Under the pieces are notes generated by a model that was not told the origin of the DNA, did not search any database, and saw only the letters and a list, made by a program, of their open reading frames with translations. From the NCBI GenBank assembly GCA_033851995.1, contig JAWSVI010000003.1, forward strand, positions 52,794 to 116,793: DNA of 64,000 nucleotides, written 5' to 3'. The stretch comes from Desulfobacteraceae bacterium (GTDB lineage Bacteria; Desulfobacterota; Desulfobacteria; Desulfobacterales; Desulfobacteraceae). Each line of letters starts with the position of its first letter. Within the stretch, counting starts at the first letter, position 1. Positions 14,409 to 43,058 of this stretch are shown here, one piece after another. Made by a program: the position numbers and the translations under genes.

Positions 14409-14522
14409 AGCACTCCCCATTAAGCAGACATTACTCCCCAAAAGTATAAATACAACATAATTTCATATTACTAAAATTTTCCTTGACATATGGTTTAATA
14501 TTCTGGAATAAGGAGTGAGTAA

Positions 14523-14681
14523 TTTTCAGGTGCCGCACATAACGGCTGAATAGGGAACCCTGTGAGAGTCAGGGACGGACCCGCCGCTGTAATCGGAGAC
14601 AATTGCTGAATTCATGCCACTGGATAAAACCGGGAAGGCGCAGCCAATTGGATGACCCGAAAGTCAGAAGACCTGCCTGGA
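14523..14681 (+). ncRNA. Cobalamin riboswitch 1
   Basis: CAGGTGC...AATAGGGAA...CCGCCGCTGTAA...GCCACTG...GGGAAGG...AGTCAGAAGACCTGCC conserved B12-element blocks. Confidence 0.95.
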
Positions 14682-14734
14682 TCTATAACAGTTATCTCCC
14701 GGAAAGAGGTAACTGCTCATGTGGATTAAAAACG

Positions 14735-14778
14735 AAATCCCTGATCAATTAAAACGGCATTTGATCAGGGATTTTTTT
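14735..14778 (+). terminator. Intrinsic terminator (expression platform of riboswitch 1)
   Basis: AAATCCCTGATCAA ... TTGATCAGGGATTT stem followed by T-run, upstream of cbiK start. Confidence 0.8.
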
Positions 14779-14796
14779 ATTGCAAAAGGAAAAATG

Positions 14797-15675
14797 ATGA
14801 AAAAATATCAATGGATTACACTAACGTTCTGCATTATTTTCTGCCTGGGCATATCAACTGCCTATGCATCCGGACATGGCCATAGTGCTGAGAAAAAAAC
14901 AGGCATTTTACTAGTTGCTTTTGGTTCCAGTGAAGCATCCGCACAAATTTCTTTTGAAAAGATCGACAAAAAAGTCAAAGCAACCTACCCTGGCATACCT
15001 GTACGCTGGGCGTACACCTCGCATATTATCCGGAACAAACTGGCCAAACAGGGAAAACATCTGGACTCTCCTGAAGTGGCACTTGCTAAAATGATGGATG
15101 AAAAATTTACCCATGTGGCTGTCCAGTCGCTTCACACCATTATTGGCGCTGAGTATGATGATTTAAAAAGAACAGTTAGTGGGTTCAAATTGACTGGTGG
15201 GTTTGAAAAAATTATCCTTGGGTATCCCCTAATGGCCACCCAACATGATATGGAAAAAGTAGTTGATGCCATCATCAGCATAATCCCCAGGGAACGAAAA
15301 AAAAACGAGGCTGTTGTCTTAATGGGTCACGGCACCCACCATCCGGCCAATGCCTTTTACGCAGCTTTAATGTTCCAGCTTCAACTCAAAGATCCCAATA
15401 TTTTTGTGGGTACCGTTGAAGGATACCCGGAAGTGGATGATATCCTCACTCTTTTAAAGAAAAATAATATCAAAAAAGCCTATCTTCTGCCGTTCATGTC
15501 AGTTGCCGGTGACCATGCTAAAAATGATATGGCAGGTGATGAAGATGACTCATGGAAAACGATCTTTACAAAAGCCGGGATTCAATGCATCCCGGTATTG
15601 AAAGGAACTGCAGAATTTGATGAATTTATCGATATCTGGGTAGAGCACATTAAAGCGCCGCTCGCCCATTTCTAA
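14797..15675 (+). CDS. cbiK: Sirohydrochlorin cobaltochelatase, exported (CbiK-periplasmic type)
   Basis: ILLVAFGSS, MGHGTHH, VAGDHAKNDMAG motifs; signal peptide MKKYQWITL...AYA; AAGGA RBS before ATG 14794/14797. Confidence 0.9.
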   Translation: MKKYQWITLTFCIIFCLGISTAYASGHGHSAEKKTGILLVAFGSSEASAQISFEKIDKKVKATYPGIPVRWAYTSHIIRNKLAKQGKHLDSPEVALAKMMDEKFTHVAVQSLHTIIGAEYDDLKRTVSGFKLTGGFEKIILGYPLMATQHDMEKVVDAIISIIPRERKKNEAVVLMGHGTHHPANAFYAALMFQLQLKDPNIFVGTVEGYPEVDDILTLLKKNNIKKAYLLPFMSVAGDHAKNDMAGDEDDSWKTIFTKAGIQCIPVLKGTAEFDEFIDIWVEHIKAPLAHF

Positions 15676-15688
15676 CCAAAAAAAATAG

Positions 15689-15848
15689 CTTTCAGGTGCT
15701 GTAAAAAGCTTAATAGGGAACTCCTGTGTAACTCAGGGACGGGCCCGCCGCTGTAACCGGGGACGAATACTGCAATATACCACTGACCAGATGGTTGGGA
15801 AGGTGCAGATATAAGGATAATCCGGAAAGTCAGAAGACCTGCCTGAAA
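15689..15848 (+). ncRNA. Cobalamin riboswitch 2
   Basis: CAGGTGC...AATAGGGAA...GCCCGCCGCTGTAA...CCACTG...GGGAAGG...AGTCAGAAGACCTGCCTG. Confidence 0.95.
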
Positions 15849-15919
15849 TAATCGTACAAGATCAGTGTTACTCTTCGTGGACAAGGGAGTGGCATATCCA
15901 GTCTGAGGAAAAATCAGGG

Positions 15920-15955
15920 AACCCCAGACCATGTAAAATGGTCCGGGGTTTTTTA
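15920..15955 (+). terminator. Intrinsic terminator (expression platform of riboswitch 2)
   Basis: AACCCCAGACCAT-GTAAA-ATGGTCCGGGGTT followed by T-run. Confidence 0.8.
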
Positions 15956-15994
15956 TTTCTAAGCCCCGGCAATTAAAAACTATTGGAGTAAAAC

Positions 15995-17956
15995 ATGAAT
16001 ATAAGCTTAAAGTGGCTAAAACTATATGTAGTATTGGCCTGTCTAATTTTTTCATTGGCTGTTGAGGCAAACGAAATCAGTCAGAAGACAAATGGAGCAA
16101 AGCTGGATGAAGTCGTTGTAACAGCAACACGGACAGATTCTATTTTAGGAAAAATTGGCGGAACTTCGGCAACGGTGATTACTGCACAGGATATTGAAGC
16201 AAAACAACAAACAACGGTTGAGGAAGTTCTTAAAGGGGTGCCGGGCCTCGATATTGTTGCAAATGGAGGACCCGGTACAATGTCGTCCGTCTTTACCAGA
16301 GGCGCCGATTCAAAAAACACACTGATTTTGATTGACGGCATCATGTTCAATGATCCTTCAGGGAGCAACAGAGGGGCCGACCTTGCCAATCTGACCGTTG
16401 ACAATATTGAACGGATTGAAGTTGTCCGGGGACCATTGAGTGTCTTATATGGAAGTAATGCCACAGCGGGTGTCATTAATATCATCACAAAAAAAGGAAA
16501 AGGAAAACCAACTGCTTATGCGGGTGCTGAAGGCGGTTCCTACGGCACTTGGAAAACCTACGGAGGTGTCTCGGGTTCAATTGGAAAATCAAACTACTCT
16601 TTATCAGCCTCAAAAGCTGAAACCGATGGATTTTCCATTGCAAATGATGACAATGATCGCATTCCTCATTCAGGCAATACATCTGAGGATGATGGATGGG
16701 AAAACCTGACCCTGTCTGGTAAAGTCGGATATGAATTCACAAATGATTTTGATATTCAGGCTGTTATCAGATACCTGGATTCAGAAGTGGAAACAGACGA
16801 TTGGGGCCCAGGATACACTGGAGACCGTTTTGACGGATACCCATATACAGCCAATCCCACCGGGACAAAAGAGCAGCGGACGGAAAGTGAACAGTTCTTT
16901 GGAAAGGTAAATCTGCACAACTATTTTTTTGAGCGCTTCTTTGAATCCACCCTGGCCTACCAGATTTCTGATCATGAAAGACAAAGTTATGAAAATGACG
17001 GCAGCCAATCCTATGACTATGAAGGTAAGACAAGAGAAGCTTCATGGCAGGGCACTTTGAACTTCAGTGATATGAACTATTTAACCGCCGGTGCTGCCTA
17101 TTTTGAAGAGGAAATGGAAAGTCAATCCTCCAGCATCATCAATAAAGAAGCCGATACCAAAAGCATCTGGATACAGGACCAGTTCATTTGGGGACAGGGG
17201 TTTGATATAATTGTTGGAATTCGACGTGATGATCATTCAAAATTCGGCAGCAAATCAACCTATCGATTTGCTCCGGCATATACCATCGAAAAAACGAACA
17301 CAACTTTGAAAGCAAGCTACGGAACGGGCTTTCGGGCACCCTCCCTATTTGAACTATACTCTTCCTATGGCAGTGAAACACTTAAACCGGAAGAAAGCAA
17401 AGGCTGGGATATTGGTTTTGAACAAAGTTTTGCCAATGAAAGGGTTAGGTTCGGTGTAAACTATTTTGATATGGTGTTTGACAATCGAATTGGGTTCAAC
17501 ATGACCACATGGTTATATGATCAACTGGAAGGTGACACAAAAGTTAAAGGCGTTGAATCCTTTGTAAGCTGGATGCCTACAGATGACTTGAATTTCACAT
17601 TGAATTATACATATAACGACACGGAAGATCCGAACGGTAATAAGCTGGTACGGCGACCGGAAAATAAGGTTCACCTTAATACCAATTACCGTTTTCTGCA
17701 AAAAGCCATGGTCAATCTTGATTTTTTCTGGGTTGGAGACAGGGAGGCGAATTCAAGTTCAGCAGATATGAACGGAAATTCTGTAGAAACACTGGGCGCC
17801 TATACTGTCGTCAACCTTTCTGCAAGCTATGATGTAACCAACCATATTAAAATATATGGAAATGTCGATAATGTGTTTGACGAAGAGTATGAGGAAGCCT
17901 GGAGTTATGCGACACCTGGCCGTTCTGCATATGTTGGTATGAAATTTACTTACTAA
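15995..17956 (+). CDS. btuB: TonB-dependent outer-membrane receptor, BtuB-like
   Basis: TonB box LDEVVVTATRT, plug IERIEVVRGPLSVLYGS, C-terminal PGRSAYVGMKFTY; under a B12 riboswitch. Confidence 0.85.
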   Translation: MNISLKWLKLYVVLACLIFSLAVEANEISQKTNGAKLDEVVVTATRTDSILGKIGGTSATVITAQDIEAKQQTTVEEVLKGVPGLDIVANGGPGTMSSVFTRGADSKNTLILIDGIMFNDPSGSNRGADLANLTVDNIERIEVVRGPLSVLYGSNATAGVINIITKKGKGKPTAYAGAEGGSYGTWKTYGGVSGSIGKSNYSLSASKAETDGFSIANDDNDRIPHSGNTSEDDGWENLTLSGKVGYEFTNDFDIQAVIRYLDSEVETDDWGPGYTGDRFDGYPYTANPTGTKEQRTESEQFFGKVNLHNYFFERFFESTLAYQISDHERQSYENDGSQSYDYEGKTREASWQGTLNFSDMNYLTAGAAYFEEEMESQSSSIINKEADTKSIWIQDQFIWGQGFDIIVGIRRDDHSKFGSKSTYRFAPAYTIEKTNTTLKASYGTGFRAPSLFELYSSYGSETLKPEESKGWDIGFEQSFANERVRFGVNYFDMVFDNRIGFNMTTWLYDQLEGDTKVKGVESFVSWMPTDDLNFTLNYTYNDTEDPNGNKLVRRPENKVHLNTNYRFLQKAMVNLDFFWVGDREANSSSADMNGNSVETLGAYTVVNLSASYDVTNHIKIYGNVDNVFDEEYEEAWSYATPGRSAYVGMKFTY

Positions 17957-17985
17957 CAATTCTGCAAAAAAAATTATAGATTTTT

Positions 17986-19239
17986 ATGGAATTTAAAACA
18001 CTTATAATCGGCCTTTTTTTGTCCACCGCCGCCTTTGCTGTAAAAGCCGGCGGTGGGCTGGCCTATCTTTTTTTACAGACACCGGACAAACGACAAAAGG
18101 CAGTTGCCTCTTTTGGATTCATGGTTGTATATGGACTTGTTTTTCTGCTTGCAGCTCTTATTCTGGCAAAGATCAACCTGACCCGTCATCTTGATCTGCT
18201 GCAGGGATTTTTCAAGAGCGGAATGACGCTCCATTTTCTATTAGCCCTTCTTTTGGCAGTATGGGGCATCAGACTCCTTTTGAAAAACAGACAGGACAAG
18301 CAGGCCACGCAGGCCTGGATTCCACTGCTAATCCCCTGCCCGGTATGTTTCAGTGTAATTCTTTTATCCTGCTCTTTTGTGTCAGCCCTGTATCCTGGTA
18401 GTTTTCTTGTATTTGTGTATCTTTATGCCGGTTTTATCCTGATCAGTCTTACAGTTGCTGCTTTTTTTACCTTTATGATCAGAAAACAAAAAAAAGCCTT
18501 GGCTTTTTTAGGCACATTGATGCTCTATATCGCTGGATACTTTATGTTATCCGTTATTCTGATTCCCCAGTTTGCGGATCTCGAAAGAATTTATAGAATT
18601 TCTCTTATTGAAAAAGGAATAGCCATGCAGATTTTTGCATTATTAAAAACATTTATTTACCTTATTGCATCGTCCCTTTTCGCACCGGTGCTGCTGATTC
18701 TATCCTGCCTGGTTTTATGGATGCTGGCGTATTCCGGCACTTTTTTTATATCCTGGATTCAAAGGCGCAGAATGCAGGTTAAAGCAGGAGAGCTACCGGA
18801 ACTTATCCTTTCCGGGCATACCGATTCCATATTGCCTGGCCCGGTTGCAGTCTTAACAAAAAAGCTTAAAAAAATACAGGCCCAGAAAAACCCTGCCCTT
18901 GTTATTAATCTGCTTCGAGATTCCGAACACAACCTCTGGAAATCATTGGACAGTTTAAAAATGATGATCCGTATTGGGCCGGGACTGGGATTGATCGGCA
19001 CCCTGATTCCTATGGGAACCGGCCTGGCTTCCCTTGGCCAGGGGGATCTTGGTCAACTCAGCCAGGATCTGGTGGTTGCCTTTACCACAACAGTTGTGGG
19101 TATGGCCCTGGGACTTTTGGCCTATTTTTTCTTTACAATTCAACACCGCTGGATAGAACAGGACATAAAAAACATGGAACTGGCTGCAGAACTGCTCTGC
19201 GGAGAACAGGCCCAAACCCGGACAATAAGGGCGGCCTGA
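17986..19239 (+). CDS. DUF2162-type membrane protein fused in frame to a MotA/TolQ/ExbB proton-channel domain
   Basis: N half: AFAVKAG, IPCPVC, multiple TMs (DUF2162-like); C half from M214: GPGLGLIGTLIPM, AFTTTVVG (ExbB/MotA). Confidence 0.8.
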   Translation: MEFKTLIIGLFLSTAAFAVKAGGGLAYLFLQTPDKRQKAVASFGFMVVYGLVFLLAALILAKINLTRHLDLLQGFFKSGMTLHFLLALLLAVWGIRLLLKNRQDKQATQAWIPLLIPCPVCFSVILLSCSFVSALYPGSFLVFVYLYAGFILISLTVAAFFTFMIRKQKKALAFLGTLMLYIAGYFMLSVILIPQFADLERIYRISLIEKGIAMQIFALLKTFIYLIASSLFAPVLLILSCLVLWMLAYSGTFFISWIQRRRMQVKAGELPELILSGHTDSILPGPVAVLTKKLKKIQAQKNPALVINLLRDSEHNLWKSLDSLKMMIRIGPGLGLIGTLIPMGTGLASLGQGDLGQLSQDLVVAFTTTVVGMALGLLAYFFFTIQHRWIEQDIKNMELAAELLCGEQAQTRTIRAA

Positions 19240-19241
19240 TA

Positions 19242-19577
19242 ATGATGTATTTAAAAACAAAGCAGAACCGTGGGAGCGGATTTTCAGACAACGATCCCAT
19301 GTCTGGTGTGGCCAACCTCTTTGACCTTGGTCTGGTTTTTATTGTCGGGCTTTTAATTGCGCTTTTCGGCGCCTATCATCTTGAAGACCTCCTGTCCCAG
19401 GATTCTGAATTAACCATTGTTAAAAAATCTGCTGACGGACAGATTGAGATCATTGAAAAAAAAGGCAGAAAAATCGAGGCCATGAAAGTCTCAAAAGACA
19501 GAGCCAAGGGACGCGGTGAAAGGCTTGGTACAGCCTACAAACTTGAAAACGGTTCCATGATCTATATTCCGGACTAG
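19242..19577 (+). CDS. DUF2149 domain protein (ExbD-like partner)
   Basis: DPMSGVANLFDLGLVF single TM then G.G.RLGTAYKLENGSMIYIPD. Confidence 0.85.
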   Translation: MMYLKTKQNRGSGFSDNDPMSGVANLFDLGLVFIVGLLIALFGAYHLEDLLSQDSELTIVKKSADGQIEIIEKKGRKIEAMKVSKDRAKGRGERLGTAYKLENGSMIYIPD

Positions 19578-19588
19578 GCCAACATAAA

Positions 19589-22500
19589 ATGAAACAGAAC
19601 AAAACGCCTACTATGAAACGATTCACACAAATTCTCACCATCACTGTTTTTGTATTTCTACCAGCTAAACTTCCTGCAGCAGACCTTGTGCTCATGGTTC
19701 TGGACCACAACTCTTATATTGCCCACCTGGCAGTAAACAATCTTGCGCTTTCAAAAAAGATATCATCTGGTATCCGCATTATTACGGCTGATGACGTCAC
19801 ACGGAAGCCAGAACAGATGAAGCAGATGATCGATGATACCCCACTGATTGTGGTTGATGTCATGGGCCGGGAGCTGGAATTTTTTTTAACCGGCAAAATC
19901 GATCTTAAATCCAAAATCATCTATGCTCTGCGCGGCTCCCTGGATGATGAATCCTTAAAGAAAAAAGGATTTCTTTTTGACCCAGCCATATCCGATTATT
20001 ATCGCCATGTAAGTATAAAAAACATACAAAATATGCTGCGTCTTGTCATACATCGCCATATTGACAAAAGCATCCGTTATGACATGATCCAATTACGGCC
20101 TCAGCTCGGCATCTACCATCCTGATGCAGCTATAAGCACGCCAAAGAGTGAGACAGGCATATTCACGGATATCAGCGATTATCTTGAGTGGCAGGCAAAG
20201 CGCCCCGGTTTTGACCCGAACCGTCCGTCAATCGGTTTCTTCTTTTTTTCATCCTTTCTCACAAAAGGCCAGCAGGAACCCGTGGACACCATTATCCGTC
20301 GTCTTGAAACTGAAAATTTTAATGTGATTCCCTGTTTTGGGCGGGAAAAAGATATTATCAAAAACTATCTTATCGATAATAATGGTAAAACCCGGGTCGA
20401 TATGGTCCTGGCATTTTCCTTTAAATTTTATAACGCACTCACACCCGAACTTGGAGAATTGCTAAAACAGCTTGATGTGCCTGTGTTCAGTGCAATCAGT
20501 ATTTACAAAGATACCATTGAGCAGTGGCGTAAAAGCCCTGTCGGCATTGACAACCTCGAAGTGGCCTGGTCTCTGGCAGTCCCGGAGATTTCAGGTCTTA
20601 CCGAGCCCACGGTCCTTGCTGCAAAAGAAAAAATCGTTGACAGGCAAACTGGAAAAGCCTTTTTTGTCAGCCGCCAGGTGACTGAAAACATGGACCGCCT
20701 GATACCACGGCTTAAAAAATGGATTATCCTGCAAAACAAACCCAATAAAAATAAAAAAATTGCCCTTTTATTTTACAACCATCACCAGGGCAAACAGAAT
20801 ATCGGGGCCTCTTACCTCAATGTCTTCAGAAGTATTGAAAAAATTGTTCATTCACTGTCGAAAAACGGATATGCTACCGGAGCACCACTAACCGAGATGG
20901 ATATCAAGGAACTGATACTGGCTTCTGCCAGGAATATTGGCTCCTGGGCACCTGGTGAACTTGACAGAATACTGGTAAAAGGACAGGTAATCCGTCTGCC
21001 CCTGGCCACATACAGACAATGGTTTGAGGAGCTTCCAAACAATTTTAAAAACCAAGTTATTCAACAGTGGGGGGAACCTGAAACCGCCGGAATTATGGTA
21101 ACGGATAACGACCTGATCATTCCGGCGGTTCAGGCTAACAATCTGATCATGCTTCCTGAACCAGCCCGCGGCTGGGGTGATGATCCTATGAAGCTGATGC
21201 ATGACACCACACTGTATCCCCATCACCAGTATCTTGCCGTATACTTATGGCTTTCAAAGACATTTAAGGCTGATGCCATGATTCATCTGGGTACCCATTC
21301 GACCTATGAATGGACACCTGGAAAACAGGCCGGGCTCTCGCCGTCCTGCGCACCGGAAATTCTGATCACGGACATCCCCAATATTTATCCCTATATCGTA
21401 GATAATCTGGGTGAAGGCATCCAGGCAAAACGCAGGGGGCGAGGCGCCATGGTCAGCCACCTCACACCGGTTCTGAGAAAAGCGGATATAACACAGGAAT
21501 ACAGCCGTATGGCTGAACTGGTCAATGAAATTGAGAGGGGGAAATCGCGGGGCAGCATCACTGTGAAGGAAAAAGTAAAAGAGTTGTTAGCCATTGCCGA
21601 ATCCACCGGCATTCTCACTGACTTAAAAGACAGTGCCCAAAACGACCATGATATCTACCATGCCACTGAAGAAAATTCATCCCATGTCCATTCAGATACC
21701 GAAGCCCGGAGCCCTGCTGCCCCAAAAAGCAAATCTGCTGCACAAAAAACGGTTCCGGTAATTGATCGGGCTACGGCAGAGACCATCCATCTTCTGGGCC
21801 ACTACCTTGAAGATATCAAATCAAGCATGATCCCATATGGCATGCACACTTTCGGGAAATCTCCAAAGCCTGAAGCATTAAAGGAAATGTCTGATGCAAT
21901 TCTAAAATGGAACCCTGAAATAAAATCAGATCAAAAGCCTGAAAAAGTATCACAAGATATTGCCCAATGCGGAGATAACGAAATCAACAGTCTGCTCAAA
22001 GGTCTTGATGGGCGGTATATTCACCCGGGCCAGGGCAATGACCCAATCCGAAACCCCAAAGCCCTTCCCACAGGCAGAAATTTTTACGGGTTCAATCCCG
22101 GCAAACTGCCGACACCTGCGGCATGGGAATTGGGCAAAAAGGCAGCCCAGCAGATTATTGACAATCACATCATCAAGCACGGCGCCTTTCCACAAAAAAT
22201 TGCTGTAGTCCTATGGGCAACAGAAACGCTTCGAAACGAAGGAGTGAACGAATCCACCATTATGTACCTGATCGGCACAAGGCCCAAATGGTCTAAAACA
22301 GGCCGGGTCCTGGGTATAGAACTGATAAAAGGGGAAAAACTGAACCGACCGCGTATCGATGTCATGATCAATGCGTCCGGTCTTTACCGGGATCTGTTTC
22401 CGGAAAAGATGCTCTATCTTGACCGCGCTATCCGTATGGCTGTTAAACAGACTGATGTGGAAAACCTCATCGCACGCCATAATGCCCAAATTAAAACCCG

Positions 22501-23686
22501 CCTGATCCAACAGGGGATGTCACCTGAAAAAGCAGACGAAATGTCACGGTTCCGTATCTTTTCCGAACCGCCCGGGGCCTATGGAAACGGTGTGGGTGAC
22601 ATGGCTTCAGGCTCTTCCAAATGGGACAACCCGGACCAGGTAGTAGATGTGTATGAAAACCGGATGGGATTTGTATTTGGCCAGGGTAAAAATGGCAAAC
22701 AATGGGGCCTTGCTGCTAAAAAGGTCATGAAAGCACAGCTCTCCCAGGTGGATGTGGCAGTCCACTCCAGGTCCTCCAACGTATACGGGCTTTTAGATAA
22801 TGATGACATGTTCCAGTACCTGGGCGGACTTTCAATGGCAGTTCGAAAAGAATCAGGAAACGCCCCGGAAACCCTGATTACTCAGCAGCAGCACAAGGGC
22901 CGTGTCAAAGTAGAAGATATGGGCAAAACACTGGGTCGGGAAATGCGTGCCCGGTATCTTAACCCTAAATGGATAGAAGGCATGAAAACGGAAGATTATG
23001 CCGGGGCCAATGCCATGTCCAATTTTGTGGAGTACCTCTGGGGCTGGAACCTGACAACCCCTGAAAAAGTGGGTGCAGATAAATGGCAGCAGACCTATGA
23101 GGTTTATGTTAAAGACAAATACGGGCTTGAAATGAAAGAATTCTTTTCCAAAGCATCCCCATGGGCTTTTCAGTCCATAACCGGCCGGATGCTGGAAACC
23201 CACCGCAAAGGGTATTGGGAAGCAGATCAAAAGCAGTTGAAAACCCTGGCAGCTGAATATGCCAAAAGCGTTATTGCCAAAGGCATTGCCTGCTGTGATC
23301 ATACCTGCAACAATCCCATGCTTAACCAGATGGTGGCCTCTATTGTTTCCATCCCTGGTGTCCTGAGTCCTGAACTGGTGGAAAAATTCAGAATAGCGGT
23401 AGAACAGATGGCACAAAAGCCGCTTGATCAACAGGTAGAAGAGCGCAAACAGCTTATTGAGAAGCTTGCTGCTCCTGCACCTGAGCAGCCCAAACCCGTA
23501 AAATCAGAAACAACAGAAGCCAAAGATCCTGAAATGGTAGAGGGCTATAAAATGGAAAAAATAGAAAAAAAGGACGACACCACCCAAATGACTTCATCCG
23601 GTATTGAATGGATGGCTGTTCTGGCCGTACTCGGCATAATAGGAATAGTCAGTTATGGTGCGCGAAAAAAACATGGCCGTCTTTAA
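19589..23686 (+). CDS. cobN: CobN/magnesium-chelatase H family protein with export signal and C-terminal membrane anchor (HmuS/BtuS-like)
   Basis: HLGTHSTYEWTPGK, YPYIVDNLGEGIQAKRRG, LPTGRNFY, RPRIDV, SGLYRDLFP, NPKWIEGM motifs; hydrophobic N-terminus and C-terminal TM followed by RKKHGR; start may be 19613. Confidence 0.88.
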   Translation: MKQNKTPTMKRFTQILTITVFVFLPAKLPAADLVLMVLDHNSYIAHLAVNNLALSKKISSGIRIITADDVTRKPEQMKQMIDDTPLIVVDVMGRELEFFLTGKIDLKSKIIYALRGSLDDESLKKKGFLFDPAISDYYRHVSIKNIQNMLRLVIHRHIDKSIRYDMIQLRPQLGIYHPDAAISTPKSETGIFTDISDYLEWQAKRPGFDPNRPSIGFFFFSSFLTKGQQEPVDTIIRRLETENFNVIPCFGREKDIIKNYLIDNNGKTRVDMVLAFSFKFYNALTPELGELLKQLDVPVFSAISIYKDTIEQWRKSPVGIDNLEVAWSLAVPEISGLTEPTVLAAKEKIVDRQTGKAFFVSRQVTENMDRLIPRLKKWIILQNKPNKNKKIALLFYNHHQGKQNIGASYLNVFRSIEKIVHSLSKNGYATGAPLTEMDIKELILASARNIGSWAPGELDRILVKGQVIRLPLATYRQWFEELPNNFKNQVIQQWGEPETAGIMVTDNDLIIPAVQANNLIMLPEPARGWGDDPMKLMHDTTLYPHHQYLAVYLWLSKTFKADAMIHLGTHSTYEWTPGKQAGLSPSCAPEILITDIPNIYPYIVDNLGEGIQAKRRGRGAMVSHLTPVLRKADITQEYSRMAELVNEIERGKSRGSITVKEKVKELLAIAESTGILTDLKDSAQNDHDIYHATEENSSHVHSDTEARSPAAPKSKSAAQKTVPVIDRATAETIHLLGHYLEDIKSSMIPYGMHTFGKSPKPEALKEMSDAILKWNPEIKSDQKPEKVSQDIAQCGDNEINSLLKGLDGRYIHPGQGNDPIRNPKALPTGRNFYGFNPGKLPTPAAWELGKKAAQQIIDNHIIKHGAFPQKIAVVLWATETLRNEGVNESTIMYLIGTRPKWSKTGRVLGIELIKGEKLNRPRIDVMINASGLYRDLFPEKMLYLDRAIRMAVKQTDVENLIARHNAQIKTRLIQQGMSPEKADEMSRFRIFSEPPGAYGNGVGDMASGSSKWDNPDQVVDVYENRMGFVFGQGKNGKQWGLAAKKVMKAQLSQVDVAVHSRSSNVYGLLDNDDMFQYLGGLSMAVRKESGNAPETLITQQQHKGRVKVEDMGKTLGREMRARYLNPKWIEGMKTEDYAGANAMSNFVEYLWGWNLTTPEKVGADKWQQTYEVYVKDKYGLEMKEFFSKASPWAFQSITGRMLETHRKGYWEADQKQLKTLAAEYAKSVIAKGIACCDHTCNNPMLNQMVASIVSIPGVLSPELVEKFRIAVEQMAQKPLDQQVEERKQLIEKLAAPAPEQPKPVKSETTEAKDPEMVEGYKMEKIEKKDDTTQMTSSGIEWMAVLAVLGIIGIVSYGARKKHGRL

Positions 23687-23723
23687 TTTTTGGGCCAGCC
23701 GGAATTTGAATAGGAAAACCAAT

Positions 23724-24167
23724 ATGAAAATTACAAAAACCCTTTTAATGATTACCGGAATTATCCTGCTTACCTCACTACAAAGTATGGCCCACGGAAC
23801 AGGCAGTGATCATACCCATACTCAAAACGAGAACGGCATTGAATCCGCCAAAATCTGGCTCAATCTGATTGATACCCGAAAATACAATGTCTCCTGGCAG
23901 ACAGCAGCACCTGTTTTCAAAACTTCAATAACAGCACTTCAATGGGAAAAGGCCATCACAAATATGAGAAATCCACTGGGGAATCTTATCGAGCGAAACC
24001 TCTTTCACGATCAATACACAACAACTCTGCCGGGGATGCCGGATGGAGAATATATCATCCTGCGATTTGTTACCAAATACAAAAACAAACAAAGTGCCGT
24101 GGAAACCGTGACCCTGATGAAAGATCAAACTGCCAACTGGCGGGTTGCAGGGTACTTTATAAAATAA
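23724..24167 (+). CDS. DUF4019 domain exported protein with His-rich N-terminus
   Basis: Signal peptide, AKIWLNLID, LPGMPDGEY, AVETVT, WRVAGYFI; RBS AGGA before ATG 23724. Confidence 0.8.
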   Translation: MKITKTLLMITGIILLTSLQSMAHGTGSDHTHTQNENGIESAKIWLNLIDTRKYNVSWQTAAPVFKTSITALQWEKAITNMRNPLGNLIERNLFHDQYTTTLPGMPDGEYIILRFVTKYKNKQSAVETVTLMKDQTANWRVAGYFIK

Positions 24168-24173
24168 TTTTGC

Positions 24174-27192: not shown

Positions 27193-27212
27193 AATGTAAA
27201 GGAGTAAACCAA

Positions 27213-32487: not shown

Positions 32488-33684
32488 CTATGGCCTATTT
32501 TTTTTATTTTTTAAAAGCCTGGCTTTCATTAAAAGCAAATCCGAATCAAATTCCTTTTGACCACAGCGCGTAAGTCCTCTATCAATCCATTTTATTGCAT
32601 TCTCCGGATCATGGGCCATGGCAAGCGCCTGGGCCAATTTTTTAAATTTTCCAGAGCTATGATTTTTGGTATCCTGATCCTGTTCCAGGATATGCTGATA
32701 CAAATCCGCCGCTTTTTGAGGTACATCCAGAGAAAGATAAAGATCCGCAGCTAAAGAGAATTCTTCAAGTGTCATCGGGGATAAAAAACCGTAGATGATA
32801 AGAGCGGACAGACCTTTTTCCTGATTGCCGTTCTTTAAATGGATATGCGACAGCACTTTCCACCATTTGGACTCTAAAGGATCTGTCCGGGTGAGTTCAT
32901 TGGCAAAGGAGAGTGCCTTTTTATCCATGCATAGGTTCAAATACTGGTGGAGCAGAATTTCCTGCCATTTCTTACGTTTTGGATACGGGTTCTTGGAGGC
33001 CAGTTCTTGAATATGGGGCAAGGCTTCCTGGTAGCGTTCCAAAGAAAAGAGGATATTCACGAAGATCTCTTTCCATGAAAGGAGCACTTTGCCTGGATAT
33101 TTCTGCAAAAGAGCATTAAACAGGAAAAGGGCTTTTTCACTGTTCTGGGACTGAAAATGACAGACTGCAGAATAATACAGATGGATCGCTTTTTTCTGAT
33201 CTGAATGCTCATACGCGTTCTCAAATGCAAGTGCAGCCTCTTTAAAATTTTCCATTTCATAATAGCATTTGGCAAGGTTAAGCCAGGCCGCACAGAATAA
33301 CGGGTTCTTTTTTATCACAATCCTGTAGCATTGAACGGCCTTGTAACGGAGGTCAGGCTTTTTAACATCGGATTCATCGTTTTCAGTGCTGATATCCTGA
33401 AACAGCGTTGAAAGGTAATTGCCCAGAAGGAAATGAAGATAATAGTGTACCCCACCCGGATGCTTATCATGCTTTGGACGGTTGATGAATTCACTCAGGG
33501 TATCAATAGCTTCCTGTACCCGTCCGTCTGAAAACAACATTTGGGCTTTTGTCACACAGAACCCTTCAGCCAGGGACAATTTCTTCTGCGTTGTCTGCTT
33601 TGCCTGGGCCATGGGTAAAGAAGACAGGTCTGTGACACAAAAAATAATCAAAACAATCTGGAGAACTCTGCTCATAAACCTCAA
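32488..33684 (-). CDS. Exported tetratricopeptide-repeat protein (TtpD-like, TonB operon)
   Basis: Signal peptide, repeated TPR-like helices (AWLNLAKCYY, ALPHIQELA). Confidence 0.8.
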   Translation of the reverse strand: MRFMSRVLQIVLIIFCVTDLSSLPMAQAKQTTQKKLSLAEGFCVTKAQMLFSDGRVQEAIDTLSEFINRPKHDKHPGGVHYYLHFLLGNYLSTLFQDISTENDESDVKKPDLRYKAVQCYRIVIKKNPLFCAAWLNLAKCYYEMENFKEAALAFENAYEHSDQKKAIHLYYSAVCHFQSQNSEKALFLFNALLQKYPGKVLLSWKEIFVNILFSLERYQEALPHIQELASKNPYPKRKKWQEILLHQYLNLCMDKKALSFANELTRTDPLESKWWKVLSHIHLKNGNQEKGLSALIIYGFLSPMTLEEFSLAADLYLSLDVPQKAADLYQHILEQDQDTKNHSSGKFKKLAQALAMAHDPENAIKWIDRGLTRCGQKEFDSDLLLMKARLLKNKKNRP

Positions 33685-33688
33685 GGAA

Positions 33689-34396
33689 TCATTCCTCCAA
33701 ATTGAAATAGATGGTTGTCCCTGCCCTGGTAGCCACAGGGATGCCCTCTACAGTTGGGGGCTTGAACTTCCAGTGGGAAACACAGTTTATTACCGATTGA
33801 TTAAACATATTTTCAGGTTCTGCTTCTACAACCTCAATATCCTGTACCCTCCCCTGATGAGTAACCAGAAATGATACTGAAACAAAACCTTCAATCCCTC
33901 TTCTCCTGGCCCGGGAAGGATAGAGAGGAGGGATCTTTACAAGAGGCATCAAGGCCGTATCGAGTTCTGCTAAACCATAGACCCCTTTGAGTATAGGTAC
34001 ATCCATGGAAAATTGTTCAAACTGCGGCATAACAAGATCCATAGGGACTGCCGGCAGTTTCGGGTTAAGTTCAAATTTAAGTTGCGGCTTAATGTTAATT
34101 TTTTTTTGAACCACCCGGGCGGGCCTTGCCTGTTGTATCTTTTTTACTGGTTTGGGTTTGACGATCTTTGAGGGCTCTTTTTTATGCAAGGGGGTTTCAT
34201 CCCTCTTTATCCGAATGACATTAACATGCCTCAGCTCCTCAAGTCTGTCCGGAGTGGATGGTATTTTCTGAATCAATCCCGGCATCAGACCGAACAAGGT
34301 AAGGTTCAGCGCAATTGACCCGGCAACAGCGAATACCCATTTACGGATATGGCTGTTTTTTGCAGAATGTATAACGCCTGTAACCATTTTGTCCAT
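33689..34396 (-). CDS. tonB: Energy transducer TonB
   Basis: N-terminal TM, Pro/Lys-rich linker, YPSRARRRGIEGFV and WKFKP C-terminal domain. Confidence 0.92.
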   Translation of the reverse strand: MDKMVTGVIHSAKNSHIRKWVFAVAGSIALNLTLFGLMPGLIQKIPSTPDRLEELRHVNVIRIKRDETPLHKKEPSKIVKPKPVKKIQQARPARVVQKKINIKPQLKFELNPKLPAVPMDLVMPQFEQFSMDVPILKGVYGLAELDTALMPLVKIPPLYPSRARRRGIEGFVSVSFLVTHQGRVQDIEVVEAEPENMFNQSVINCVSHWKFKPPTVEGIPVATRAGTTIYFNLEE

Positions 34397-34816
34397 TTAG
34401 CTGCCATTCTCCCTGTTAGCGGCAATGGAAACATTTTGAGCACCAGCCAGTTTGCAGGCATCCATGACATTTATAACAAGGCCGGTCAGACTTTCTTTAT
34501 CTGCAACAACGACAACGCCGCCGTCGGGATTTTCCGCCAGTGCCCTTTCCACATTTGCACGGACTGCACGGATATCCACTTCCCGGTGATCGATATGAAT
34601 GGTATTGTCTTTTGTAACACCGATCAGGATGGTGGTTTTTGTTTTGCTGACTGCGCTTGATGAGGTGGGCCTTGAAATATCCACACCCGTCTCTTTCAAA
34701 AAACTTGTGGTAACAAGAAAGAAGATCAGGAGAATAAAAACCATATCGATCAGGGGAGCAATATTGAGCTCAAGAGTTTTTGTATTTGCACGCCTGGCAG
34801 CGCTGATATTAAGCAT
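34397..34816 (-). CDS. exbD: Biopolymer transporter ExbD
   Basis: LNIAPLIDMVFILLIFFLVTTSF. Confidence 0.93.
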   Translation of the reverse strand: MLNISAARRANTKTLELNIAPLIDMVFILLIFFLVTTSFLKETGVDISRPTSSSAVSKTKTTILIGVTKDNTIHIDHREVDIRAVRANVERALAENPDGGVVVVADKESLTGLVINVMDACKLAGAQNVSIAANRENGS

Positions 34817-34829
34817 AATTAATTTCTCA

Positions 34830-35429
34830 CTATAAAAATCGTTTCAAATAGATACCCGTAGCAGCGATCCGGTATTTCACGTTATGGGCTCGTTTGGATA
34901 AAAATCCGCTCATATAAAGACCGGGAATAGAGACCATCAGACCTGTCTGGGTGGTGATCAGGGCCACGGAAATCCCGCCCGCCATAGCTTTGGCATTTCC
35001 AGTGCCGAATATCGTAATCACATCAAATGTCCCCATCATTCCGGTAACGGTACCTAAAAGCCCCAGAAGAGGAGCAACACCGGCCAGGATACGAATAATT
35101 GCCAAATGGCTGTCCAGTTTAGAGATTAGACGGACCACGGTTTCATCCAGAATAAAATCATCCAGCTCAGGATCATTGCTCCGGGCAGCCAAAAATTCTC
35201 GTACCAGAAGCGAGTTCGCACCCTGATATTTCTCAGCAGGTGCCTGATTTTTTTTAACCAGTTCACCTGCCATATCCCGTGAGATGTTCTTAATATAAAG
35301 CCTGCGCAAAAAGAACATCCGGTTAATGATCAGAACCCACATAAAAAATGAAACCGTGAGAATCGGGATCATTACGATGCCCCCGGATCTCATATATTTT
35401 TCTATGGAATATAGTACGTCTGTGATCAT
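34830..35429 (-). CDS. exbB: MotA/TolQ/ExbB proton channel protein
   Basis: APLLGLLGTVTGMM, GISVALITTQTGL. Confidence 0.9.
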   Translation of the reverse strand: MITDVLYSIEKYMRSGGIVMIPILTVSFFMWVLIINRMFFLRRLYIKNISRDMAGELVKKNQAPAEKYQGANSLLVREFLAARSNDPELDDFILDETVVRLISKLDSHLAIIRILAGVAPLLGLLGTVTGMMGTFDVITIFGTGNAKAMAGGISVALITTQTGLMVSIPGLYMSGFLSKRAHNVKYRIAATGIYLKRFL

Positions 35430-35439
35430 GGAAGTTTAC

Positions 35440-36873
35440 CTAATGTCTAACCGCCCAGGTTTTAAAAATCATATTCACAAAAGCGACTGACTTTTCTTCC
35501 ATTCTGGAAATCTGGGTTTCCACACGACGACTGAGCAGGGTATGGGCCAGCATGATGGGGATCGCCACAGACAAACCCAGCATGGTAGTGACAAGGGCTT
35601 CGGAAATACCACCGGACATCATCCTGGGGTCACCAGTCCCATAATAGGTAATCACATGAAACGTATTAATCATACCAGTTACAGTGCCCAGGAGACCCAG
35701 AAGCGGGGCTATTGCAGCCAGCATTCCCAAAGTAGATAAAAACCGTTCAATTGCCGGGATCTCTCCAAGGATAGCCTCCTGGAGCGCATTTTCTATTTCA
35801 GGCCGGGTCCGGTCTTTCAATGCTAAGGCTGTCAATAGTATTTTAGGAATCAGTTTTTCCTTTTTATTCTCAAGAAGCGTTTTGCATCCTTCCCAGTCAT
35901 CTGCAACAATTTTCACCCTCAACATGGTCATCAATTTCTCAGCATTAACGCGGCGTTTGGAAAAAAAGATAAACCGCTCGATCAGGATAAGGACGGCAAA
36001 TCCCAGAATAGCCAAAATCGGCCACACAATGGCACCTCCTTTGGGCACCTGTTTTGTCAGGCTGAGCTGGTGGGCCAATTGACGGATGGCACCGCCTTTG
36101 GAAATATCCATATAAACACTGTCCTGTTGCCCTTTTAGATATGCGGATATATTATCCTCGACTCTTGCCGATGGCAGCCGGGATAAAGCAAAGTAGCGCT
36201 GGCTGGTGTCTGAATACAACAAAAATCCAGTTTCATTGTCCAGGGTATAAATGCCGGTAAAATTACCCAGCAGCAGGAGTTGACCCATGCGCTCTTTTCC
36301 TTTCCGGTCCACCATGAGGCCTTTTGTAACGGTTACCTGCCCGGATGATCGGATTTCAGAAAAAAGGTGTTCAGCAAGTTTTCCAACATCATCCATAGTG
36401 GGAAATTTCTGTCCCAGGAGAATGGGCTCTAAAAACTCATGCTCCCCGGGTGTCAGCCCGGACTGAAGGTTTTGTTTGAGAATTGATTTCAAATCCTTGG
36501 CACTGGTTTGCATCACTCCCCGGAATTCCCGGTTTACGGCGGCAGTTTCCTCAAGGTCCTTCCGGAGCTGTTTCTCTTCTGTTTTCAGAGTATTTATCTC
36601 AACTGAAATACGTTTATTATCTGCTTTCAGGACTTTAACGGCAGACTTTAATTTGGCAATGGATTTTTGCAAACGGGTTTTATCTCTAACAACCTCCTGG
36701 TATTGGTCCTCTGCCTGTCTTTTTGCATCCTGGATCTCTGCTTGAGCTTTTTTTATCAGGTCCTGTTTTTTCTGCTCAACACGTTGATGTGCAACACGCA
36801 TGTCCTGGGCAGCGGCAGGACATGACAAAAAAAAGACACTGATGAAAAAAAACAGGTAGATATATGCCTTCAT
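35440..36873 (-). CDS. Long MotA/TolQ/ExbB protein with periplasmic coiled-coil N-terminus (TtpC-like)
   Basis: Signal peptide, coiled coil, C-terminal APLLGLLGTVTGMI and GISEALVTT. Confidence 0.85.
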   Translation of the reverse strand: MKAYIYLFFFISVFFLSCPAAAQDMRVAHQRVEQKKQDLIKKAQAEIQDAKRQAEDQYQEVVRDKTRLQKSIAKLKSAVKVLKADNKRISVEINTLKTEEKQLRKDLEETAAVNREFRGVMQTSAKDLKSILKQNLQSGLTPGEHEFLEPILLGQKFPTMDDVGKLAEHLFSEIRSSGQVTVTKGLMVDRKGKERMGQLLLLGNFTGIYTLDNETGFLLYSDTSQRYFALSRLPSARVEDNISAYLKGQQDSVYMDISKGGAIRQLAHQLSLTKQVPKGGAIVWPILAILGFAVLILIERFIFFSKRRVNAEKLMTMLRVKIVADDWEGCKTLLENKKEKLIPKILLTALALKDRTRPEIENALQEAILGEIPAIERFLSTLGMLAAIAPLLGLLGTVTGMINTFHVITYYGTGDPRMMSGGISEALVTTMLGLSVAIPIMLAHTLLSRRVETQISRMEEKSVAFVNMIFKTWAVRH

Positions 36874-37697
36874 AAAGCACCCCCCTGTGTTACAAGGCGA
36901 CCAAGAGGCAGGGGTAACAGCTCAACAGGTTTTCGCTTGCTTCCGATCTCAAAAGCAGACCGGATGGCCGGCAGATGTTTGTCCGGCAACGACTGCCATT
37001 TGTTTTCTCCCGGATTGAATACTCCGCAAATTGCCTGATCAAGAGATAAAAAGAAAAGAGATACCCGGCCCAGGCGGAAAATATTGCAAAGGGTTTCGTC
37101 CTGCCCGGTTGATTCAAGCTGGATCGTATCCTGATAAACTTCAATGGTCGAACCATACTCAGCCTCTATAAACAAAGCTTCCATAATTTTTCGAAATTTT
37201 TCCGCAATCGTGATTTCAGGGTCTTTCATGACTTTGGAAAGATTGACCAGCCGCATATTCCGTTCTTCTTTTAAAAAAGGAGGGTCGTTGGCTACAAGGG
37301 CTTCAAACTGTGTATAGATACCTGTTAAAAACGGAGACAGTTCCTCTTGAATACGAATTGATTCTTCTTTCTGCTGCCTCAGGTTCTGGATGAGAACCTT
37401 TTGGTTATCCTGCTGAGCGGCAAGCGTTTTGTTCTCTTTTTCAAGGAATTGCTTTTGCTGCAGGAGCATTTCATACTCGTTGACAAGCCTTGTTTTTTCT
37501 TGTTCCCAGCGGGTACGCTCCTCCTGGGACTTTTGTTGAATCCGGATAGCTGTTTCCACATATTGCTGTGCCTGTCTGCTGATATCCTTAGCTTTCGGGG
37601 ATGTCTGGCAGAAACCTGCACCTGGACAGCAAATCAGAAGGAACAAAACGATAATTGCCATAACGCAGATCTTCTTTATCAGGTGATGTGGTATCAT
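36870..37697 (-). CDS. DUF3450 family periplasmic protein
   Basis: PPFLKEER..RL, EKFRKIMEALFIEAEYG, RLGRVSLFF motifs; precedes the TtpC-like gene. Confidence 0.82.
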   Translation of the reverse strand: MIPHHLIKKICVMAIIVLFLLICCPGAGFCQTSPKAKDISRQAQQYVETAIRIQQKSQEERTRWEQEKTRLVNEYEMLLQQKQFLEKENKTLAAQQDNQKVLIQNLRQQKEESIRIQEELSPFLTGIYTQFEALVANDPPFLKEERNMRLVNLSKVMKDPEITIAEKFRKIMEALFIEAEYGSTIEVYQDTIQLESTGQDETLCNIFRLGRVSLFFLSLDQAICGVFNPGENKWQSLPDKHLPAIRSAFEIGSKRKPVELLPLPLGRLVTQGGAL

Positions 37698-38544
37698 GGT
37701 TCTCTTTATTTTGTTTATTGTTATTCTTCTCATTAATTAAAAATATCCAGGGCCTGCCGGTGATCGGGTTTGGATTGACCCGCACCTGTGTCTGGTAGAC
37801 GGTCTGGATATTGCTCTGTGTTAATACATCTTCCGGGGTGCCAATTGAAAAGATTGTTTTTTTCTCTTTACTCAACAAGACCAGCCTGTCTGCATATTCT
37901 GAAGCGAGATTCAAATCATGGAGCACCATTAATACGGTCAAAGACAACTCTTTTTTAAGAATTGTAATCAGATCCAGGATACTTTTCTGGTGGGTAATAT
38001 CCAGATGGGATGTTGGTTCATCCAGCACCAGGAGATCCGGCTGTTGAGCCAATGCCTTTGCAATCGAACAAAGCTGGAGCTCACCGCCGCTGATCTGTGT
38101 AATACGGCTTTCAGCGAGATGTGCAACGCCTGTCAGTTCCATGTACTTTTGAGCAATTTCTATATCCTGTTGGGTCTCAAAAAACTGATAGCGCTTGAAA
38201 AACGGCATCCGCCCCAGCAGCACATAGTCACGTACGCTCATCGCTGCCGGATCTATGGTCTGCATAACTGCAGCCATATGCACAGCAAGTCCCTGATTAG
38301 ACAATTGGGAAATATTTTTACCGAGTACCTGTATGCTGCCGGTGTCCGGTGTTTCACTTTTAAAAATTGTTTTGATCAGGGTGGTTTTCCCACAGCCGTT
38401 GGGGCCAATGATGGCAACAAATTCTTCAGGGTTTATACAAAAAGATATCTTTTCAAGAATCTGATTTCCTTTGTACCCGAAACTCATGTTTTCAACATTA
38501 AGGACTGGTATACCTGAAATTGATTTTTCAATTTTCGAATTCAT
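37588..38544 (-). CDS. btuD: Cobalamin ABC transporter ATP-binding protein with C-terminal read-through extension
   Basis: GPNGCGKT, ISGGELQ, LDEPTSHLD, HDLN; B12-riboswitch operon. Confidence 0.82.
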   Translation of the reverse strand: MNSKIEKSISGIPVLNVENMSFGYKGNQILEKISFCINPEEFVAIIGPNGCGKTTLIKTIFKSETPDTGSIQVLGKNISQLSNQGLAVHMAAVMQTIDPAAMSVRDYVLLGRMPFFKRYQFFETQQDIEIAQKYMELTGVAHLAESRITQISGGELQLCSIAKALAQQPDLLVLDEPTSHLDITHQKSILDLITILKKELSLTVLMVLHDLNLASEYADRLVLLSKEKKTIFSIGTPEDVLTQSNIQTVYQTQVRVNPNPITGRPWIFLINEKNNNKQNKENHDTTSPDKEDLRYGNYRFVPSDLLSRCRFLPDIPES

Positions 38545-42718: not shown

Positions 42719-42780
42719 ATTCCCTTTTCTTTATCCGAAATTTTAAAATCCCTTTTTTCCACGAAGGGTATTTCATATGG

Positions 42781-42947
42781 TCCAGGTAGGTCTTCTGACT
42801 TTTGGATCAACCTAGTTGCTGCGCCTTCCCATCTTTTTTTAAAAAGAGACAGTGGCTTTGTGCAGCGTTCGTACCCAATCACAGCGGCGGGCCCGTTCCG
42901 GATTTTAACCGGATTCCCTTTTATGCCCCTTTTGGGGCACCTGAATG
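42781..42947 (-). ncRNA. Cobalamin riboswitch 3
   Basis: Reverse complement: CAGGTGCC...AAAAGGGAATCCGGT...GCCCGCCGCTGTGA...GCCACTG...GGGAAGG...AGTCAGAAGACCTACCTGG. Confidence 0.95.
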
Positions 42948-43058
42948 ACCATTGCTTTATTCGTAAAAACAAAAAAAGTCAATATTAAAAAATTTCATTC
43001 TGGACAAATCAAAGTTATGCCGATGATCTCGAACCAGTCAAATCAGGTCTGATAGATA

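Follow-up and report, generated by a model that had tools for sequence, protein, structure and literature searches.

We report here the analysis of a gene pair located in a 64,000-nucleotide stretch of a Desulfobacteraceae genome assembly (GCA_033851995.1, contig JAWSVI010000003.1), hereafter the window. The pair consists of a MotA/ExbB-type protein and a protein of family DUF2149, and it is followed by the gene of an exported CobN-like (de)chelatase. MotA/ExbB pentamers pair with a single-transmembrane (TM) partner bearing a conserved Asp to transduce proton motive force, and the two proteins look like the A and B subunits of an ion-driven stator of the ExbBD/TolQR kind, as indicated by their sequences and structural models. 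The balance leans slightly towards the exported CobN-like enzyme, rather than a receptor, being the client that this putative motor energises. The pair is best seen as what would be a general ExbBD-like power unit for a C-terminally anchored extracytoplasmic protein, most often a (de)chelatase of the CobN type. It must be noted that the module itself was already known and that what is new here is the comparative support (receptor-less loci, mutual exclusivity with an ATPase and a box in the tail of the enzyme) for an inferred mechanism.

The combination of a CobN-like protein, a membrane protein, a MotA/ExbB-type protein and DUF2149 corresponds to the S-T-U-V part of the hmu operon of Bacteroidota (PMC11681262, PMC10434189), and the letters T, U, V and S are used below for the equivalent parts of the window locus, which comprises one open reading frame (ORF) for T and U and one each for V and S:

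17986-19239 (+), ORF of 417 amino acids (aa), with matches to DUF2162 at residues 6-231 (E 9.3e-37) and to MotA_ExbB at residues 291-398 (E 2.7e-12)
17986..18624 (+), DUF2162 part (T); PF09930, E 9.3e-37, 127 bits, above cut-off; six predicted TM helices
18601..18627 (+), fusion junction with a run of five A, on which one fused ORF or two genes depend
18625..19239 (+), TolQ/ExbB-type stator A subunit (U); PF01618; three TM helices and a cytoplasmic helical domain
19242..19577 (+), DUF2149 protein (V), 111 aa; PF09919, E 2e-31, 108.6 bits, above cut-off
19589..23686 (+), CobN-like (de)chelatase (S), 1365 aa, exported and C-terminally anchored; PF02514, 1045 bits
23537..23659 (+), tail of the CobN-like protein, with a VEGYKM box (23537-23554), a linker and a TM anchor (23609-23659), then a basic end

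An earlier note on this DNA had placed the genes of the MotA-type protein and the single-TM DUF2149 protein directly ahead of that of the anchored CobN-like protein. The Pfam matches bear this out, the CobN-like ORF starting only 12 nucleotides (nt) past the DUF2149 ORF.

The A subunit matched the MotA_ExbB family (PF01618) with 47 bits, against a cut-off of 22.9. The AlphaFold2 (AF2) model of the MotA part, folded alone, had a predicted local distance difference test (pLDDT) score of 82 and a predicted template modelling (pTM) score of 0.70. The top 45 PDB matches of this model in Foldseek were all TolQ/ExbB chains (probability 1.0, TM-score 0.40-0.59), with ZorA after those. A phmmer search of the MotA part against PDB sequences gave nothing informative (best E 0.62). 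The protein carries the motifs GTLIP in TM2 (18997-19011) and AFTTTVVG in TM3 (19078-19101), and GTLIP and AF(T)TTV.G did not vary among 20 relatives, some of them archaeal or actinobacterial. In both helices the GT and T residues aligned with those of TolQ/ExbB sequences taken from the window, from its genome and from one relative, and we take the Thr residues of TM2 and TM3 to be equivalent to those that line the ion path in E. coli ExbB/TolQ.

The DUF2149 protein is composed of a basic N-terminal tail, an NLFD motif with Asp28 (19314-19325), a TM helix (19326-19376) and a small beta domain in the periplasm, whose last residues are RLGTAYKLENGSMIYIPD. Across 69 family representatives the motif P19...N25-L26-F27-D28 was near-invariant, and D28, which lies where the TM helix begins on the cytoplasmic side, was at least 90% conserved. 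The acidic residues in or near the TM segment (DPMSGVANLFD) pointed out in the earlier note are therefore present, with the refinement that, among those listed, D28 is the one conserved across the 69 representatives. DUF2149 was not assigned to the ExbD family, since sequence homology to ExbD/TolR could not be demonstrated. When compared by hhalign, DUF2149 reached a probability of 0.7% with one ExbD sequence and of only 4.7% with 12 ExbD/TolR sequences, in an alignment restricted to the TM region in which Asp28 fell exactly on the ExbD/TolR Asp; both Asp residues were also in register in a side-by-side view. The DUF2149 profile gave nothing significant against PDB sequences (weak ComEA match, E 1.3), and the fold search with its AF2 model (pLDDT 79, six beta strands in the periplasmic domain) gave no PDB match with E <= 1e-3, and the 50 matches listed did not include ExbD/TolR. 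In addition, no match to PF02472 (ExbD/TolR) was found among the 69 DUF2149 representatives, and the DUF2149 hidden Markov model scored about 25 bits, below threshold, on the TolR of one genus. In its predicted architecture (a single N-in TM helix with an Asp near its cytoplasmic end) DUF2149 is stator-B-like, yet it is no demonstrable member of the ExbD family.

With ExbB-ExbD-TonB and TolQ-TolR-TolA, the system shares the fold of the A subunit, the Thr in TM2 and TM3, the N-in TM helix of the B subunit with its Asp at the cytoplasmic end, and a third, membrane-anchored periplasmic client. It differs from ExbBD/TolQR in that DUF2149 belongs to another family, whose small beta domain lacks an ExbD/TolR fold match, in that the putative client, an enzyme of some 1300 aa, has its anchor helix at the C-terminus and not at the N-terminus, and in that the MotA-DUF2149 system occurs in archaea and monoderm bacteria. 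In GldLM, AglRQS and ZorAB, too, a pentamer of the MotA/ExbB type and a small partner with an Asp drive a client other than a flagellum, although these systems have no sequence-family relation to DUF2149 and their type of client is different. Neither DUF2149 nor CobN is mentioned in a recent survey of MotAB/ExbBD-type motors.

The linkage between the pair and the enzyme was followed across taxa, the Bacteroidota loci being obtained from an alignment-based locus search and the archaeal and other contexts being collected contig by contig. The CobN-like gene adjoined that of DUF2149 in every Bacteroidota locus whose upstream sequence reached 6 kb or more (61/61) and in 19/20 loci of Desulfobacterota, which belonged to different families. 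Across 301 genomes of the phylum, DUF2149 was present in 33 and CobN in 79. CobN was found in 31 of the 33 genomes with DUF2149, and the remaining two had DUF2149 pseudogene remnants only. Archaeoglobi-type contigs showed the order DUF2162-MotA-DUF2149-CobN (CobN of 1614 aa with a C-terminal TM helix), which is the gene order of the window, and no receptor. MotA-DUF2149 was likewise found beside CobN with no TonB-dependent receptor in a genome of the Planctomycete Zavarzinella and in two further contigs. In one Archaeoglobi-type contig (L012, 15375-18130) the module was followed by a DtxR/MntR-type repressor and a ZnuA/ABC-3 (ZnuABC-like) metal importer, a gene context that hints at a role of the archaeal module in metal acquisition.

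A second line of evidence concerns the partner of the enzyme. ATP is unavailable outside the cell, and the AAA+ motor ChlI/ChlD (CobS/CobT) cannot work outside the cytoplasm. No ChlI/ChlD-like genes were found in 112 exported-CobN loci, and none was present in the window's genome, in which the best match was a ComM-like protein of 44 bits; CobS/CobT were not searched separately there. The cytoplasmic CobN proteins of 12 loci of the same phylum had no signal peptide and no C-terminal TM helix; ChlI/ChlD were adjacent in 5/12 of these loci, and MotA or DUF2149 in 0/12. In the sampled loci, the ATPase goes with cytoplasmic CobN-type proteins and the motor with exported ones, and the two partners exclude each other. 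The large subunits of CobN-CobS-CobT and ChlH-ChlI-ChlD are homologous to the window enzyme over the whole length (PF02514), and they share with it the character of a large cavity enzyme in need of a separate mechanical partner. There, however, the partner is a pair of cytoplasmic AAA+ ATPases, of which ChlI/ChlD are absent from this genome and from the 112 exported-type loci, whereas the window enzyme is extracytoplasmic and has a characterised relative, HmuS, whose reaction runs in the direction of de-chelation. A second, ATP-type arrangement was observed in other Desulfobacterota (L160-L165), in which a cytoplasmic CobN is encoded near TonB-dependent receptor genes and, in L162-L164, also beside ChlI/ChlD.

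The third line of evidence is the tail of the enzyme. In the CobN-like protein of the window, the N-terminus is of the export type, MKRFTQILTITVFVFLPAKLPAAD, and at the C-terminus a TM helix precedes a basic end; such a C-terminal helix was found in every complete motor-linked CobN-like protein. At 15-29 residues ahead of the anchor helix, a box of the form [VI]xG[YFH]x[MLVF] was present in 19/19 Desulfobacterota CobN-like proteins and in the Archaeoglobi one, against a background expectation of 0.018 per tail of 70 aa. The tail was also considered as a sortase- or exosortase-type sorting signal, which was rejected given that the box does not abut the helix but is separated from it by 15-45 residues. 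MotA-DUF2149 was found without CobN as well, next to large exported proteins of unrelated kinds. These were a PKD protein in a Solirubrobacteraceae genome (L098), with the box VEGFVL before its C-terminal helix, giant CARDB/DUF2341 proteins of ANME-1 (L096, L097), with VMGYPF and VIGHPF in the same position, NHL/fn3/CW_binding_2 proteins in two contigs (L099, L151) and DUF3344/SLH proteins (L169). Other than the PKD and ANME-1 ones, these non-CobN partners had a near-miss box or none. In several of the CobN-less loci, transport genes of the ECF (CbiM/CbiQ) or molybdate type are found nearby. Tentatively, and with less confidence than we place in the enzyme as client, MotA-DUF2149 might represent an ancient motor class in its own right, ion-driven, of the 5:2 type and shared by archaea, monoderms and diderms, that passes proton-motive energy to extracytoplasmic clients with a box plus a C-terminal helix, mainly exported CobN-type proteins. 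If this were true, no metal-tetrapyrrole enzyme would have been seen before to run on a membrane rotary motor in place of an AAA+ ATPase, and no ExbBD-like motor of archaea would previously have had a client assigned to it.

The surroundings of the module bear on the question of whether the pair could serve the receptor encoded next to it. The relevant elements are:

14511..14694 (+), cobalamin riboswitch 1 (Rfam RF00174, 110 bits), upstream of an exported-type CbiK
14719..15675 (+), CbiK-type chelatase with an N-terminal extension of about 60 aa, probably exported (PF06180, E 4.4e-77, residues 62-313)
15677..15860 (+), cobalamin riboswitch 2 (RF00174, 108 bits), heading the receptor-T/U-V-S run
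15995..17956 (+), BtuB-like TonB-dependent receptor (Plug and beta-barrel Pfam matches; TIGR01779 E 1.7e-100, under its cut-off)
32488..37733 (-), TonB system of DUF3450, DUF3450-MotA, ExbB, ExbD, TonB and TPR (Pfam matches)
33689-34396 (-), TonB
34397-34816 (-), ExbD
34830-35429 (-), ExbB
35440-36873 (-), DUF3450-MotA
36870-37733 (-), DUF3450
42768..42959 (-), cobalamin riboswitch 3 (Rfam, 114 bits), heading the minus-strand run

Behind riboswitch 3 the minus-strand genes follow in the order BtuF-CbiZ, BtuF, BtuC, BtuD, DUF3450, DUF3450-MotA, ExbB, ExbD, TonB, TPR, CbiK and a second BtuFCD-like set. The layout of the TonB system resembles that of Vibrio TonB2/Ttp (TtpB-TtpC-ExbB-ExbD-TonB-TtpD). 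The window thus contains two CbiK paralogues, the extended one at 14719-15675 (+) with its own riboswitch and an unextended one at 31649-32431 (-) in the uptake operon. On the 3' side of the CobN-like ORF there are genes for a DUF4019 protein, an unassigned ORF, a NapH-like Fe-S protein, a double-cubane-type reductase and an activase. Save for one weak NapH match, the NapH-like, reductase and activase genes were not found in 20 related Desulfobacterota loci; they were therefore rejected as part of the module and treated as a separate cassette.

In the model drawn for Bacteroides thetaiotaomicron, HmuU and HmuV act as ExbB and ExbD for the receptor HmuR (PMC10100974, PMC12583661), and by extension U and V would be a spare ExbB/ExbD set working with a TonB for the adjacent receptor. 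Besides this published model, the TolQ/ExbB fold, the conserved Asp and the presence of a receptor gene next to the pair, both here and in most bacterial loci, speak for such a role. The genome content argues otherwise. The receptor at 15995-17956 gave the single PF07715 (Plug) match genome-wide (the genome is 97% complete), and the single TonB gene is that at 33689-34396 (-), with ExbB and ExbD adjoining it under their own riboswitch, so that the only receptor and the only TonB of the genome both lie in the window and both behind cobalamin riboswitches. The genome has nine genes of the MotA_ExbB family. The operon of the pair contains no TonB gene, the periplasmic domain of DUF2149 lacks an ExbD-like fold, and the module occurs without a receptor in Archaeoglobi, Planctomycetes, Actinobacteria and ANME-1. 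We therefore regard a spare ExbB/ExbD set as very improbable, the least probable of the explanations considered. The complete TonB-ExbB-ExbD set that the earlier note had located at 33.7-37.7 kb, apart from the motor pair, was recovered by the Pfam matches, and its claim that the second motor is not needed for the receptor is supported by this single receptor, by the single TonB with its own ExbB/ExbD and by the occurrence of the motor-CobN core without receptors in archaea and Planctomycetes.

The main rival is a transport role together with T, in line with the other option of the earlier note, by which the motor would move the ring or metal across the inner membrane. According to it, U-V and the polytopic T (DUF2162 here) would form a proton-driven inner-membrane importer of a metal ion or a tetrapyrrole, and the CobN-like enzyme would merely feed this importer. 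DUF2162 has an intramembrane PCPVC motif (nt 18334-18348) that looks like a soft-metal site and is near-invariant, and in the window it is joined, or all but joined, to the MotA-type subunit. The PCPVC motif was observed to be near-invariant in DUF2162 of Desulfobacterota and Archaeoglobi (L012, 8685-9407). The fusion itself must be read with caution. In close relatives, alignments showed a DUF2162 protein of about 240 aa with a seventh helix, which is missing in the window protein, and a separate MotA-type protein. The single ORF of the window hinges on one A of the A5 run in GAAAAAGG (18608-18615), within a junction that reads GAAAAAGGAATAGCCATG; with A4 instead of A5, a TAG stop would be located 2 nt before the ATG at 18625, which is preceded by an AAGGA ribosome-binding site. 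The DUF2162-MotA fusion may therefore be a one-base artefact. Two distant proteins (P0371, P0372) have DUF2162 and MotA fused independently and at the same point, which makes a T-U contact plausible whether or not the window fusion is real. For Porphyromonas gingivalis, HmuTUV has been proposed as an inner-membrane heme transporter by authors who 'cannot exclude' an effect on HmuS activity (PMC12094164, PMC13227078).

Against import, T is not a conserved component of the module. Bacteroidota HmuT proteins had no DUF2162 match and CPxC was missing in 67/68 of them, no T gene lies between S and U in Zavarzinella, and the non-CobN contexts are also devoid of T, so that the invariant core is U-V-S. 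Moreover, two BtuFCD-type ABC importers are already encoded in the window. A further point against an importer is that the 5:2 stators known so far act mechanically on partner proteins and, to our knowledge, none drives a permease. Taken on both sides, this evidence leaves import with T unlikely, although it is the alternative to which we give most weight, and the exported CobN-like enzyme is retained as the favoured client.

Judging by its gene content, the window locus is the known hmu S-T-U-V module, which the earlier note had not recognised, in a cobalamin-riboswitch-controlled variant of Desulfobacterales. With the hmu operon (P. gingivalis PG1553-1556; B. thetaiotaomicron BT0491-0495) it has in common the same set of S, polytopic T, U and V beside a TonB-dependent receptor. 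The control regions differ, two cobalamin riboswitches leading the window locus, which is probably repressed through them in place of the iron/heme control of Bacteroidota; a cobalamin riboswitch was found in 7/7 related Desulfobacterota loci and in 0/7 Bacteroidota hmu loci. The gene order is R-S-T-U-V in the hmu operon and R-T/U-V-S in the window, in which CbiK precedes the receptor and no HmuY match was found among the ten ORFs scanned (14719-27962). The T of the window is a DUF2162 protein with PCPVC, while Bacteroidota HmuT is not DUF2162, and the window module is surrounded by corrinoid genes (BtuF-CbiZ, CbiK, BtuFCD). The BtuF-CbiZ gene of the window (40576-42615, -) encodes an exported fusion. 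In relatives, a BtuF-CbiZ gene is located between DUF2149 and CobN (L140:6655-8724; L142:9899-11977; L167:3180-5504), and in genome G015 DUF2149, BtuF and CbiZ are joined in a single ORF of 774 aa.

The enzymes also differ. The best PDB match of the CobN-like protein was HmuS (9d26, E 5.6e-148), with ChlH at 2.7e-123. From the de-chelatase signature of HmuS (the Met-79/His-254 site, the Met-rich insertion, Asp-1208/His-1209 and His-538), the catalytic-type HLGTH at 21284-21313, equivalent to His-538, is kept. The heme ligand His-254 aligned to a Tyr, the N-terminal region holding Met-79 did not align with the window enzyme, and the insertion is rich in His and Ser instead of Met. At 22790-22813, where HmuS has SLDH (Asp-1208/His-1209), the window enzyme has DNDD, with Asp in place of His-1209. 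DNDD was observed at this position in all exported CobN-like proteins of Desulfobacterota and in the Archaeoglobi one, TNHH in Zavarzinella, and SCTD or GCCC in cytoplasmic CobN proteins; the subfamilies, exported and cytoplasmic, therefore differ at the putative metal site. Because of the riboswitches, the BtuF-CbiZ context, the Tyr in place of His-254, the lack of a Met-rich insertion and the DNDD motif, the substrate of the DNDD-type enzyme is probably a corrinoid or another cobalt-related tetrapyrrole and not heme.

With the CobN-like enzyme as client, the following mechanism may be envisaged. The C-terminal TM helix of the enzyme and the V-x-G-Y-x-M box just outside the membrane would dock to the motor, as TonB and TolA anchor to ExbBD and TolQR. 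U and V would assemble 5:2 around an Asp/Thr proton path, and the flow of protons through it would be converted into mechanical work on the enzyme, which could drive substrate loading, distortion of the ring or release of the product. In this way the motor would substitute, outside the cytoplasm, for the AAA+ partner ChlI/ChlD (CobS/CobT). HmuS has been shown experimentally to be a heme de-chelatase that needs NADH and membranes and does not need ATP (PMC12583661). A truncated HmuS without its anchors and without HmuTUV converted heme to protoporphyrin IX for 1-2 turnovers only, and membranes were efficient (PMC12583661). The chemistry is thus independent of the motor, with room left for a role of the motor in turnover. 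In this regard, the proposal of the earlier note that the motor replaces the chelatase ATPases agrees with the stator-like pair, with the absence of ChlI/ChlD from the genome and with the exclusivity of ATPase and motor; that it energises the chelatase is a step that we infer, since truncated HmuS turns over without motor or ATP.

Several observations weigh against the motor energising the enzyme. The first turnover of HmuS in vitro proceeds without ATP or HmuTUV (PMC12583661), and de-chelation may be thermodynamically downhill, in which case the motor may not be needed for the chemistry. Homology between DUF2149 and ExbD/TolR is not demonstrable (hhalign 4.7%; no fold match). The T-U fusion in the window and in P0371/P0372, together with the intramembrane PCPVC of DUF2162, points to transport. 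The box is short, and it is missed in its strict pattern by two non-CobN partners (L099, L151) and by the Planctomycete-type CobN-like proteins (L149, L150), while the tails of Bacteroidota have a looser G-M/T-V-M/L-K-K version only. In addition, the C-terminal anchor of the client gives its helix a direction opposite to that in TonB and TolA.

Part of this evidence would also fit a non-energetic role, in which the pair would serve to anchor or position the CobN-like enzyme (close to a metal transporter or an electron donor, for instance), to assemble it or to gate it, with no conversion of proton motive force into catalysis. The activity of truncated HmuS without the pair and the tether-like DUF2149-BtuF-CbiZ fusion of G015 are in its favour. 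Nevertheless, the Asp and Thr typical of ion-conducting stators are strictly conserved from archaea to bacteria, which is more than a passive scaffold would require, and we consider such a role improbable.

HmuS-type de-chelatases are the route by which abundant gut and oral anaerobes obtain iron from heme, and HmuTUV are at present linked by analogy with either the receptor or transport across the inner membrane. Should the motor drive the enzyme, this would explain how a machine of the CobN/ChlH type can work outside the cytoplasm without ATP, and the halt of purified HmuS after one or two turnovers would be accounted for as well. The range of ExbBD-like motors would also grow to include archaea and Gram-positive bacteria, and clients of new kinds. 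Finally, the variant controlled by B12 riboswitches suggests that the same machinery may also handle corrinoids or cobalt in sulfate-reducing bacteria.

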